From: a virus
Taxonomy: Duplodnaviria > Heunggongvirae > Uroviricota > Caudoviricetes
DNA: 13,970 nt
IMG/VR virus record: IMGVR_UViG_2558860274_000006
Location: 1-13,970 of that record
Reading direction: 5' to 3' (one strand)
Position 1 is the stretch's first letter, and each line of letters starts with the position of its first letter. Positions 9,001 to 13,970 of this stretch are shown piece after piece. The position numbers are program-made.

Positions 9001-12000
9001 GCAGCGGCTGCACTTTCTGCCGCCTGCCGGGCTGACTCCGATGCATCCCCTGCTGAAGTGTCAGCATTTGCAGCGCTCTCTTCTGCCTGACTGGCTGATA
9101 TGCCGGCATTCCTCGCGGACGTCTCCGCCTCTCCGGCATTCTTCTTCGCCTCCTCAGCGTGACGCGCCGCTTCTTCCACCATCAGTTCAAAACGACGCAG
9201 TGCCTCCGGCCGGACGTCATCCTCCGACATGGCACCGAGAAAATCATTCAGCGTACCCGGTTGAGAATCTTCATACACGGTGATGGTCCCGGCATGTGAC
9301 GGAGGAAATCCCTCCACCAACAGAATGACGCTGTACTGACCGTACTCAACGTCCATGCTGTAACGACCGGCTTCATCCGGATTTTCAGAGGCCACCGTGT
9401 TCACCACCACCGTGCTGCTGGTCCGTCTGGCTTTCAGTTGAATGGTGCAGTTCTCTACCGGTTTTCCTGTGCCGTCTTTCAGTACACCTGAAATCTTTAC
9501 TGCCATATTCACCCCACAAAAAAGCCCGCCTGAACCGGCGGGCTGTCATAACACTGTGTTACCTGGCTAATCAGAACTTATAACCGACACCCACGATGAA
9601 ACCGTCAGTGCGCCAGTCGCCACTGCCGGAGCCTTCATAAGCAATATCAATGGCCACGGATTCGGTCGGGTTAAACTGCACGCCAGCTCCCCACGCCAGA
9701 GACGTGTTGCTGTGGCGACCGTCATCACTTCCGGTCAGCACATCGTGCGTTTTCCCCTTGTTGTCAGTTACGCGAAGATAATCCCCGGAGAAAGTCGACA
9801 CACGGCTGTAAGCCACACCCGCCATCGCATACGCGCTGAACCATTCATTCACGCGTACAGACGGCCCCGCCATCACGCTGAACCAGCGGTTACGCACAGA
9901 ATCTTCATGCCAGCGGGTATCGCTGTAACGGGTAAGCTGGCGATTCTTGTCTCCTGCATAGCTGAATGACGTCACCATCCCCAGTGTGTCCGTAAACTCA
10001 TAACGGTATTTCACGTTAATCCCGTTAAGATTATCGCTACCGGGAGCGTTCGTCCGGGCATGAAGATACCCCGCGCTCAGCGTGGCCTGCTGCTCAGACG
10101 CCCATGCAGGCGCACCGGATACGGTCAGACAAATGGCTGCGGACAAAATGGCGGCATAAAGTTTACGCATAATTACCTCTCGCTTTTCTGCAATAAAAAA
10201 GGCGCCATTTCTGGCGCCCGTATATGGGTTATAAAATTCAGCTGATACTGATGCCTGCGGTGGCTTTCTTCATCACCACAACCAGCAAATCGCTGATACT
10301 TGCTGTGGGATACCCTGCTCATTGTTGCCCCCACAAACAGACTTCACGCTCAATCTCGCGGCGAGTCATCAGCCCTTTCCATTGCTTACCGCCAGCGTAT
10401 GTCCAGCGCCGTAGCTGATCACATGCGCCTTTGATATCGCCCTGGTTTATTTTGCGAAGAAGCGTCGATGTTCTGAAATTGCCAGCGCCCACGTTGTAAA
10501 CGAACGAGTAAAGAGCGCCGCGCGTTGTTTCCGGTATATCGACGTTGATGTACGGGTTAATTTGTCTGGCGACCGTGGCAAGGTCTTTATTCAGGAGGGC
10601 TTTGCATTCTGCTTCGGTATACGTTTTACCGGGCATGATGTCTTTTCCGGTGTGTCCGTGACATACAGTCCATACGCCAACGATATCTTTGTATGGTATG
10701 TAGCTGACACCTTCCAGACCATCGTTACCACCTGGACCAGTGATGAGCACAGACGCTATGGCAACAGCCCCACCACCAATAGCAGCTGCAACAGCCTTGC
10801 GTAATGACGGCGACATTATTCACCTCTCGCAGCCTTACGCTTATCTTCTTTAATCTTGAAATAAAGATTTGTCAGATACGTCAGCAGGCCAAACAGCAGA
10901 CTTCCCAGCACACCTATTGCCACCCACTGGGACGGAGAGACTTTGTCCAGCAACTGCAGTAGCCAGTATCCCGTCCCCACCGCTGACGTGGTGTATGACA
11001 CACCTGTTGTTATTTTTTCCATCTGGTACATACCCCGTCTCCCGTTATCCGGAAGCTGACAACAATAAAAAGCCACCAGTTAATTCCTGATGGCCCTGAT
11101 GCATAAACGTCATAATACCTGACTGTTATGATTGACAATAATGATAATGTTTATATAGAAAGGTTCCCGATGTGTGTTACATATCATTTCTCCACGGGGA
11201 ATATCCCCACGCCAGCGCAGACTCTTTTACCCGTTCTCTTCTGCGCTGGCTCTTTTTTATTATGCTGCTGCATTTACCTCTGGCACCATGCTTTCTATCT
11301 CAACACAATACGTGGTACTTCTTGTAACCAATATCATAACGATTAATCGACATAGAATTTCTCCCGTGTAACAGGAAAGTCAGACCTACCAGTAGACATA
11401 AAGCTGCGAAATGTTGAGATTAAGGTGAAATAGCATGAATTCTATTACCAAAGAACGTATCGAATTATTCATTAAAAATCCGCTTGAAAACGGGCTTACC
11501 CGTGGTGAACAAATGGAACTTGCACGGATTACGCTGGCATCGCTGGAAGCAGAACCGGTGGCATGGCTGCATTCAGACAATGGCTTAGGTATTCCGGCAA
11601 TAACACGGAGTAAAAACGTTGCTGACAGTTGGTTATCAAAGGGTTGGTATGTTCAGCCGCTATATATAGCTCAGCCAGTACACGTGCCGGAGGAAATGAA
11701 TCTGGCACGCGCACAGAAAGAGGTGGGTTTTAATCGATATATCATGGCTGGGTATGTTGATGGCTGGAACGCCTGCCGCGCTGCCATGCTTCAGAGCCAA
11801 GGTGGAGGCAACCAATGAGCAATTATCTGTACTGGTCTGGCTTAGTGGCTAACATCGCGCTCATGTTGTTCGTGGCTCTTTGCATCTGGGTTTGGTTTAT
11901 CTGGCCTTTTGTAGAAGCCATGAGCATAACTCGGTGCTTTATTTGCGCATCAAAGACTTCTGGATGCAAACCAACTGTAAGAGCAATTATCAGAACTTTA

Positions 12001-13970
12001 AAATACTGGTATCTGGATTTGCTTTTCGGCAGGGGCTGGACGCGAATTAGTAACCGCCAGTTTGAATGGGAAGGCGTCGGTAACTGGCGAATTCACAGCA
12101 GCAAAGAAACGCAGGAGGTGAAGTAATGAATAACTTAATGATCGACCTTGAGACGATGGGGAAAAATAAGGATGCACCGATCGTTTCCATTGGCGCGGTG
12201 TTCTTCACTCCAGAAACCGGAGACATCGGACAAGAATTCTATACGGTTGTCAGCCTGGACAGTGCTATGGAGCAAGGGGCCACACCTGACGGCGATACCA
12301 TCCTGTGGTGGTTGAAACAAAGCCCTGAAGCACGAGCTGCAATCTGTATTGATGATACTTTGTCGATCAGCGATGCACTCTCTGAACTGAGCCATTTCAT
12401 TAATCGGCACGCAGGCAATACGAAATATTTAAAAGTTTGGGGTAACGGGGCCACCTTCGACAACGTAATTTTACGCGGAGCTTATGAACGAGCAGGACAA
12501 ATCTGCCCATGGGCGTACTGGAATGATCACGATGTACGCACGATCGTTACGCTTGGGCGTTCCATCGGATTCGACCCCAAAATGGACATGCCTTTCGATG
12601 GCGAACGGCACAACGCCCTGGCTGATGCTCGTCATCAGGCAAAATATGTTTCCGCTATCTGGCAGAAATTAATTCCTGCCACCAGCACAGAATTATGATT
12701 TTCCCGGGTGCAGCCGGTTTTGATGGAGAAAATTATGAACACCTTGTTTTTACTGATGGCTGAATTCAATACCCCAAACATTGAACTCTCAGCAGTTAGC
12801 CAAAAGTACTTTGGTATGAGTCCAGCCACGGCAGAAGCAAAAGCAAACGCTTGTAAGTTGCCCGTTCCAACATATCGCATCGGCACATCACAAAAAGCAA
12901 AACGTTGCATCAATATTCAGGATCTTGCGGAATACATAGACAAAAGACGAGAAGAAGGACGTATCGAGTGGGAACAGGTCAGAACAAGCAAACAGAAGGG
13001 CAAAGAACATCACTAAAGAAAAAACCCGCCTAAAGGCGGGTTTTCAAAAAGCACCAGCTATGATCATGCTGCTTTGCGACGACGAAGCTTACCCTGCTGC
13101 TCTTTACCAGAGACAGTAGCGTGAGTGAACGCATTAGGAGCAGCCTTCATCAGAACTTCAACAGCAGCACCCATACCTGCGAATGCTTTCATTGTGTCGA
13201 ACTTAACCTGTGGCTTGGTTGCTTTTTGATCTTTCATAGAAAACTCCCGAGACAGTAAAGGCGTCTCTAACCCTCTCTTTAAAGCTAGCTTGTTTCGCTA
13301 ACTTATGCCAATCGATCATGTCGATTGGTGACATCGTTTCTTAGTAGTTTAAGCACAAAACGACTGCCATAGATGTACCTTTAAGGTAATCTGGACGGGT
13401 ATCCTACAATTTGTAGCCCCTTCTCGTCTATACCTACTGAGCAAATTTAAGAAAGATATCCTGCAGCTCATCAATGACTGCAGACATCACATAACCGCAC
13501 TGTTCCATGCGGAAACCAAAAGACTCGTAATACTGCACCAGTTCTGGTACTGGCTCTACAATGTGGACAACTTTACATTCAACAGCTTTACAAAATATAA
13601 AAGCACTCATAAGAGTGAGTAAAACCATGCGCCCTTTCAATGGGTGAGATTCATCTTCTCTAGAAAACCTTTCGATCATATGGATACGAAAGATGTTTTC
13701 TTCAACCCCATAAACACAAATTGCTGCTCCTGATGGTATTCCCTGAACCCGACCTTGCTGAACAAGTTTTATGCAGAACTCATACTTTTCTCTGGAGTTG
13801 CCATAGGTGCTTAACGCATAGTCCCATTCAAGCTCACCATAGCCACCACACAGAATCTTGTAATCATCATCACTGAGCGGACCAACAGCAAGAGGTAAGC
13901 CGACATGATCAATAATCAACTGGATATTGTTACGTACAGATTGACCTATCTCGTCTAGGGTAAGCATCAT

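Follow-up and report, generated by a model that had tools for sequence, protein, structure and literature searches.

The four-gene segment beside the lysis genes of a dusA prophage remnant is probably the end of an mEp460-like early-left operon

Introduction

Among the relatives of the locus treated here, the best documented is the lambdoid phage mEp460 (NC_019716), a complete phage. Counted from its cI-like repressor gene, the order is yfdP, DUF2303/yfdQ, 5'-deoxynucleotidase, several small genes, an Ea22-like gene, a gene of 63 amino acids (aa), DUF551, exonuclease and excisionase; past the excisionase gene there are two convergent genes, attP and int. The integrated form can be seen in a complete 42-kb dusA prophage of Escherichia coli Z1323CEC0016. 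It begins with dusA, int, the gene of a DUF4765 protein, tail fibres, lom, J, other tail and head genes and the terminase, continues with Rz, R, S, Q, the nin region, replication genes and cro, and closes with cI, the early-left operon ending in DUF551/exonuclease/PrtN, two cargo genes and a dusA' fragment. Here we compare with these elements four consecutive genes (11435-13016) found in a stretch of viral DNA of 13,970 nucleotides (nt) (positions 1-13,970 of the record IMGVR_UViG_2558860274_000006), which as a whole is called the window below. An initial annotation, made from the bare sequence, had described these genes as an early operon of uncertain function.

Three further reports are relevant. 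The mEp460 integrase was named among the dusA-associated integrases, and a homologue of prtN was present in 60 of 94 dusA-integrated islands (Farrugia et al. 2015, PMC4482086). RdfN, a PF11112 protein, is necessary and, together with Int, sufficient for the excision of a dusA-specific element, where rdfN and int stand on either side of attP, pointing toward one another (Durand et al. 2021, PMC8409611). As to the exonuclease, an E. coli homologue of T4 DexA, EcD, is reported to degrade DNA containing 5-hydroxymethylcytosine (5hmC) (2025 paper, PMC12153337).

Results

Gene order and origin of the segment

All four genes are on the plus strand. They encode a 127-aa protein, seemingly the N-terminal module of a DUF551-type 'ea' protein without the DUF551 domain (11435-11818; matching phrog_60, phrog_660 and phrog_5117), a 103-aa single-pass membrane protein that seems to be a rare accessory cassette (11815-12126; phrog_2531), a 190-aa DEDDh 3'-5' exonuclease of the T4 DexA/Rv2179c family (12126-12698; PF16473 and phrog_255 'exonuclease'), and a PrtN-domain protein, probably an RdfN-type excisionase (12735-13016; PF11112 and phrog_1300 'excisionase'). 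We suggest, with a probability of about 0.85, that a lambdoid phage like mEp460, inserted at the 5' end of dusA, left them behind as the promoter-distal end of its early-left (PL-type) operon, in a remnant riddled with deletions.

Many E. coli prophages, and sequenced phages as well, contain DNA that is nearly identical to the segment. In mEp460 the order and orientation are gp27 (DUF551), gp26 (exonuclease), gp25 (excisionase), gp24, gp23 and gp22 (integrase). The exonuclease of the window is 98% identical to gp26, the excisionase 97% to gp25 and the integrase 98% to its counterpart; mEp460 also has the same convergent cargo genes of 57 and 178 aa, and the integrase is of the same dusA type. 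The match with the early-left end of mEp460 agrees with the initial annotation in that the genes belong to an early operon and to a module distinct from the lysis cassette.

In an intact phage, transcription would run from beside the cI-like repressor gene through about 15 tightly packed and often overlapping genes, among them yfdP, yfdQ, yfdR, the Ea22-like, the DUF551-like, the exonuclease and the excisionase genes, and would stop at the hairpin after the excisionase gene, with the two convergent cargo genes followed by attP and int on its far side. In this reading the four genes are separate passengers of the operon and not one machine. The yfdP, yfdQ, yfdR and Ea22-like genes and the cI-proximal early promoter are absent from the window, so the segment is not contiguous with them there. 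Judging from the gene order, the four genes are members of the early-left operon by descent, and the operon itself is broken.

The overlapping stop and start codons reported earlier were confirmed. The TGA of the 127-aa gene and the ATG of the 103-aa gene are merged in ATGA (11815-11818), and the TAA of the latter and the ATG of the exonuclease gene in TAATG (12124-12128). Shine-Dalgarno-like motifs are found 7-9 nt before each start (AAGGTG, GGAGG and AGGAGG). The fourth gene does not overlap the third: its likely start is the ATG at 12735 and not the GTG at 12708, as there is a GGAG upstream and PGAP annotates relatives with the same 93 aa, which leaves 36 nt after the exonuclease stop. Overlapping starts are usual throughout the same operon in relatives, and in mEp460 the DUF551 and exonuclease genes share one base. 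By this comparison the overlaps are real and not distinctive.

The strong terminator that had been proposed is also present, as a GC-rich hairpin at 13020-13045 found by folding and by a pattern scan, and it appears to be common to the operon and to the convergent 57-aa gene. The folding energy is -18.1 kcal/mol (z -6.2) for the plus strand, against -19.3 kcal/mol for the minus strand. The minus strand carries a strong U-run; the plus strand has no more than UUUU, for which reason the pattern scan flagged the minus strand alone.

Database names for members of these families are unreliable. The 127-aa family appears as 'valyl-tRNA synthetase' or as a DUF551 pseudogene, the 103-aa gene either has no annotation or has a fragment named 'pentatricopeptide repeat-containing protein', and the DEDDh exonuclease is called 'exodeoxyribonuclease VIII' or 'endodeoxyribonuclease' (seen over window 11435-12698, in the related locus L004 at 6131-6895, and in proteins P0133 and P0135).

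Deletion joints around the lysis genes

The initial annotation had noted that the operon diverges from the lysis cassette where a Q antiterminator and a late promoter would be expected. The separation into two modules holds. The arrangement itself is a deletion joint, and in intact relatives about 14 kb lie between the lysis genes and the segment, with Q, the nin region, replication genes, cro/cI and most of the early-left operon. The segment adjoins the lysis genes in the window because these 14 kb were deleted.

By three-way alignment, the joint lies at 11368-11378, with a microhomology of about 10 bp (GTAACAGGAA) between the region upstream of the holin gene and the early-left operon, 57-67 bp before the first ATG (11435). 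The homology with the lysis cassette spans the lysozyme and holin genes up to about 11377, and the homology with the early-left operon begins at 11365. On its left side, the joint ends a truncated 65-aa 5' part of a moron gene that is normally divergent from the holin gene (11174-11371, plus strand; the complete protein in the related locus L005 is WP_012578864.1, 133 aa). An exact-protein look-up of this truncated open reading frame (ORF) returned only genes cut by contig ends. On its right side there is a 3' remnant of a 63-aa early gene of the WP_021513303.1 family (11372-11433, plus strand; by alignment to the related locus L001 and from the annotation of L001 and L010), with its TAG 1 nt before the next ATG.

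A second joint, at about 10305-10312, fuses the 3' end of J, just past lom, to the lysozyme stop and removes Rz. Set against L006, an intact dusA prophage, the remnant lacks about 22 kb with the tail, head and terminase genes, and about 14 kb with genes for regulation and replication. Altogether the deletions removed Q, the late promoter region, nin, the replication genes, cro/cI, the early promoter and most of the early-left operon. The alignments indicate that the window holds the remnant of a prophage, with the holin and lysozyme genes left isolated by a deletion on either side. No complete E. coli genome spans the joint near 11370, and a 30-mer across it was absent from two public collections, one of genomes and one of metagenomes. 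By these searches the joint is a lineage-specific scar and not a design.

The native early promoter and the repressor being deleted, the stranded genes would be either silent or transcribed by read-through from the truncated moron upstream. A weak promoter-like site ahead of the 65-aa ORF (11119-11148) is not above chance, and the promoter scan returned 3 sites where 4.8 would be expected by chance, so that no promoter can be claimed for the stranded genes.

The 127-aa ORF and the arrival of the membrane protein gene

No Pfam match was found for the 127-aa ORF at E <= 0.1, and the DUF551 domain (PF04448) is absent from it. Its residues 1-119 are 100% identical to a 213-aa DUF551 protein of E. 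albertii (P0132), the divergence beginning after ...CRAAML. The end of the ORF, ...AAMLQSQGGGNQ, is common to several variants of about 125-134 aa, and the replacement tail QSQGGGNQ is found on such variants with different N-termini. Identical intact 127-aa ORFs are found in L001 and L010. For the identical ORF in other strains, PGAP gives the first 126 nt as a DUF551 pseudogene. In genomes with other genes upstream, the homology to the window starts at about 11804. The shared DUF551 N-terminus, the recurrent tail and the homology from about 11804 therefore suggest that the 103-aa gene arrived as a cassette. As far as these alignments go, it came with a ribosome-binding site of its own and with the ATGA and took the place of the DUF551 domain, so that the apparent coupling to the 127-aa ORF is a by-product of its arrival. 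The 127-aa protein would then be a DUF551-type 'ea' protein cut down to its N-terminal module. Its structure model was poor (predicted local distance difference test, pLDDT, 57.4), and a profile search of the PDB gave no match.

The 103-aa protein was correctly called a small membrane protein, with a single hydrophobic segment in the hydropathy profile at residues ~8-32. It has one predicted N-terminal transmembrane helix and a basic C-terminal part, and its residues 1-97 match positions 2-98 of the 100 of phrog_2531 (E 4.4e-27). Against two homologues, the ratio of nonsynonymous to synonymous substitution rates (dN/dS) is 0.10-0.23, which indicates purifying selection; because of this ratio and the PHROG 2531 match, the ORF is a genuine gene. 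An AlphaFold model (pLDDT 72.5) contains a long helix (residues 2-48), two short helices and a hairpin. A Foldseek search against viral structures found only uncharacterised phage proteins, and no relative was found by a profile search of the PDB.

This family is small and always stand-alone, with 40 clusters in a representative library, all of 60-109 aa. A tblastn search gave full-length relatives with 35-43% identity from 620 phage records, virulent Dhillonvirus, Jerseyvirus and Klebsiella siphoviruses among them. The contexts are diverse: after O/P in the nin region, between terminase and portal, ahead of a RecB-like nuclease and an annealing protein in phage PEAT2, after the lysin in Jerseyvirus VSe101 (L032 1141-2800), and just before the holins in Dhillonvirus JLBYU37 (L033 2486-3848). 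From these contexts the family is one without a constant partner, and in the present operon the gene would be a rare inserted cassette encoding a single-pass membrane protein. The position of homologues beside holin or lysin genes in virulent siphoviruses hints at a role related to the envelope or to lysis.

The DEDDh exonuclease

The DEDD exonuclease was confirmed and is of the DEDDh type. Its residues 2-179 align with positions 1-177 of the 177 of PF16473, the Rv2179c-like 3'-5' exoribonuclease profile (E 2.4e-75; 252.6 bits against a cut-off of 27). When the protein is aligned with T4 DexA and relatives, D7, E9, D112, H162 and D167 do not vary, and because these five catalytic residues are all in place the protein is, by alignment, an intact DEDDh enzyme. 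The sole solved relative found by sequence is a 227-aa chain deposited as 'Exodeoxyribonuclease' (PDB 8KEL, with the mutant 8KEN; E 3.9e-10), which we take to be T4 DexA, judging by its length and by how it aligns with the product of T4 dexA.

What is conserved of the exonuclease gene is its place immediately upstream of an excisionase gene, whichever the family of the latter: PrtN in the window and mEp460, DUF1233 in Nissle 1917 and Salmonella, and lambda Exc-like in Klebsiella. A tie to one excisionase family was considered and rejected, as the gene precedes three unrelated ones. Judged by these neighbourhoods, its place as the last gene before the excisionase is conserved in many enterobacterial lambdoid prophages. 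The gene would be a standard early one in such phages, and the enzyme would likely trim 3' ends of single-stranded nucleic acid in early phage DNA metabolism.

The PrtN-like gene as an excisionase

The PrtN-like gene was rightly recognised as such (PF11112, E 4.1e-23; 81.8 bits against a cut-off of 24.2; 93-102 aa depending on the start). Its designation as a regulator is less fitting, and by its slot, PHROG 1300 (E 8.3e-40) and the RdfN precedent it is better read as an excisionase. The gene is at the attR-proximal end, across attP from int, to judge from the map of mEp460 and from intact prophages, where a dusA' fragment follows the cargo genes; attR itself is beyond the end of the window. 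Because domain, size, dusA location, partner integrase and position all fit, we consider it probable that the protein is an RdfN-type excisionase and not a transcription factor. Such a recombination directionality factor would direct the dusA-specific integrase toward excision, if it behaves as its distant tested homologue. The partner is probably the tyrosine integrase gene int at the attL side (2652-3749, plus strand), which starts 89 bp from dusA. On this basis, PrtN-like genes of E. coli dusA prophages can be annotated as RdfN-type excisionases.

Alternative explanations

According to the initial annotation, the 127-aa protein, the membrane protein and the exonuclease might form one translationally coupled module acting in recombination or against host defences. 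The three ORFs are intact, a few other E. coli strains have the trio with identical 127-aa and 103-aa sequences, the PEAT2 homologue of the 103-aa protein is encoded just upstream of a RecB-like exonuclease, and the stop/start overlaps do exist; these, however, are general in the operon, and the one at the 127-aa ORF would come from the insertion of a cassette into a DUF551 gene. The three genes do not always occur together either. Among 5426 complete E. coli genomes, the exonuclease gene is found in 641 (433 at >=80% coverage) and the 103-aa gene in 42, against 5 records, one of them with a second copy, for the arrangement that includes the 127-aa gene. The gene before the exonuclease varies. 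Of 19 full-length rows in a sample, 10 had DUF551 there, 6 a hypothetical protein, 2 a dATP/dGTP pyrophosphohydrolase and 1 no gene; in Salmonella a DndB-like gene and in Klebsiella a 70-aa gene lie directly upstream. mEp460 has no 103-aa gene, and its DUF551 gene abuts the exonuclease gene; in turn, no DEDD exonuclease goes with the 103-aa homologues that are found in nin, structural and lysis contexts. The co-occurrence data seem to have largely refuted such a unit already, and we give it hardly any credit. For the PrtN-like protein, a role as transcriptional activator, like that of Pseudomonas PrtN for pyocin genes, is suggested by the name of PF11112, taken from the pyocin activator, and Farrugia et al. 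(2015, PMC4482086) left the role of these proteins open. We regard it as improbable, since the gene has the position of an excisionase gene, the last of the early-left operon and facing attP with int on the far side, PHROG 1300 bears the annotation 'excisionase', other prophages have bona fide excisionase families in the slot that follows the exonuclease, RdfN and Int are sufficient for the excision of a dusA element (PMC8409611), and the phage has its own Q antiterminator for the late genes.

The exonuclease could also be a prophage-borne defence of the HREX/EcD type, a DexA homologue degrading incoming 5hmC phage DNA and protecting the lysogen, and this would account for its being kept in a remnant. 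The protein is a homologue of T4 DexA and conserves DexA W152 (as W132), and WP_001061350.1, which is 97% identical and annotated in related prophages, is listed among the bacterial DexA homologues in Table S3 of PMC12153337, where E. coli EcD was reported to cleave T4 DNA and, when plasmid-borne, to protect against T4. The protein expressed from a plasmid in that work has, however, another sequence (MIDTET...TIPETY). The window enzyme has Ser80 and Asp83 as the equivalents of DexA S87 and D90, which PMC12153337 links to the tetramer attacking unmodified DNA, and EcD has Ala for D90; the equivalent of DexA D169 is Ser146, in a gapped and poorly conserved stretch of the alignment. By the criteria of that paper, the window enzyme appears unlike EcD. 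None of the 120 best exonuclease homologues begins with MIDTET as EcD does, and the 20-nt core of the EcD (HAK9828821.1) reverse primer gave only chance matches, with no exonuclease ORF, in viral, metagenome and genome contigs. Searches against PADLOC and NCBIfam returned nothing besides a weak and generic DEDDh match in PADLOC (E 2.5e-5). In intact phages the gene is under repressor control, and no expression would be expected in a quiescent lysogen. We therefore find a defence of this type unlikely. For functional work, the DexA-like exonuclease would be a sensible choice, though not a pressing one. A more speculative possibility, which we consider rather improbable, is that the remnant was kept for host use: released from cI by the deletion, the exonuclease and perhaps the membrane protein too would be expressed through transcription coming from the truncated moron, and would form a constitutive barrier to superinfecting phages with modified DNA, with int and rdfN keeping the 11-kb element excisable. 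Two points do weigh against the origin that we prefer. All four ORFs are intact although most phage functions are gone, which could mean selection for a benefit to the host and not a recent deletion, and the RdfN reading relies on a 'highly divergent' family whose experimentally tested homologue is distant.

We still favour the end of an mEp460-like early-left operon as the source of the four genes. The apparent operon diverging from the lysis cassette is a deletion scar in a decayed prophage, and the apparent three-gene module a product of cassette shuffling. The outcome that would have told against the initial annotation, homology to a well-characterised early operon with assigned functions, holds by half: the operon is that of mEp460, a sequenced phage, and experimental support for a function concerns RdfN only, in a distant homologue. 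The segment is 96-100% identical to DNA of a sequenced phage and hundreds of prophages, and each gene is in a described family. The four genes are ordinary ones, and nothing singles out the two proteins of still unassigned function.

Other features of the window

The left end of the window is chromosomal, with qor, pspG and dusA (1526-2563, minus strand, by ORF scan), and the prophage begins after dusA. The ORF scan also gave int, named above, and directly after it a 1134-aa ORF (4082-7486, plus strand) called 'DUF4765 family protein' in relatives. This ORF is carried by intact dusA prophages too and was read as a large cargo protein; a PADLOC search with it gave no match. A transposase fragment (7571-7861, minus strand, by ORF scan) lies just past the 3' end of a tail-fibre gene (8181-9512, minus strand). 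The latter has a long collagen-like region of Gly-X-Y / GPxG repeats, from which several long spurious ORFs arise on both strands (for example 8411-9283 and 7833-8804, both on the plus strand).

It is followed on the minus strand by lom (9571-10170), the lysozyme gene (10319-10816) and the gene of a class II holin (10816-11076), all identified, like the tail-fibre gene, by ORF and Pfam searches. Just upstream of the holin gene and on the same strand, there is a terminator-like hairpin with a U-run (11069-11097, minus strand). Its position is where the terminator of the Q-antiterminated late transcript would be expected, and the corresponding Q is deleted in the window.

At the right end, the two cargo genes of 57 and 178 aa, convergent with the operon (13064-13970, minus strand; phrog_2741 and phrog_4350), correspond by kind and position to gp24 and gp23 of mEp460 and are likewise found in the related loci L002 and L006; they had no match in a Pfam search. 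Between the excisionase gene and attR the cargo is variable, and in other strains this slot holds a Panacea-domain protein and a hypothetical protein (L001 10676-11724; L010 7916-8960), a pair that looks like a toxin-antitoxin pair. No RNA genes were found by Rfam and tRNA scans of the whole window.

Over window 1-10297, the best matches among complete E. coli genomes are only ~96.5% identical, and the nearest full-length relative of the 127-aa ORF comes from E. albertii. From these similarities, the source may be a divergent Escherichia lineage.

Comparison with known systems

With respect to mEp460, the main difference within the segment is that the phage has a full 250-aa DUF551 gene where the window has the truncated 127-aa module and the 103-aa cassette. 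The window has also lost everything between the holin gene and the early-left segment, whereas mEp460 is a complete phage. Compared with the DUF551 (PF04448) proteins of the 'ea' region of lambdoid and P22-like phages (e.g. HK620 hkaE), the 127-aa ORF has the same position in the operon and shares its first 119 residues with a bona fide member, and its 5' end has ~92% nucleotide identity with HK620/P22-like genes; the DUF551 domain, present in those proteins, is absent from it.

The exonuclease has in common with T4 DexA the catalytic Asp/Glu/Asp/His/Asp residues and the equivalent of W152. The identity is 31%, and the window enzyme is 37 residues shorter and without the extra loops of DexA. 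While dexA is a gene of a virulent phage, the enzyme of the window is encoded in the early operon of a temperate phage and not by a stand-alone host gene. The PrtN-like protein, finally, resembles the RdfN of IMEVchUSA3 (PMC8409611) in its PF11112 domain, its small size, its location in an element at the 5' end of dusA and its place at the end opposite to int, the features on which the comparison rests; it differs in having 93 aa and in being encoded by the last gene of a phage early operon.

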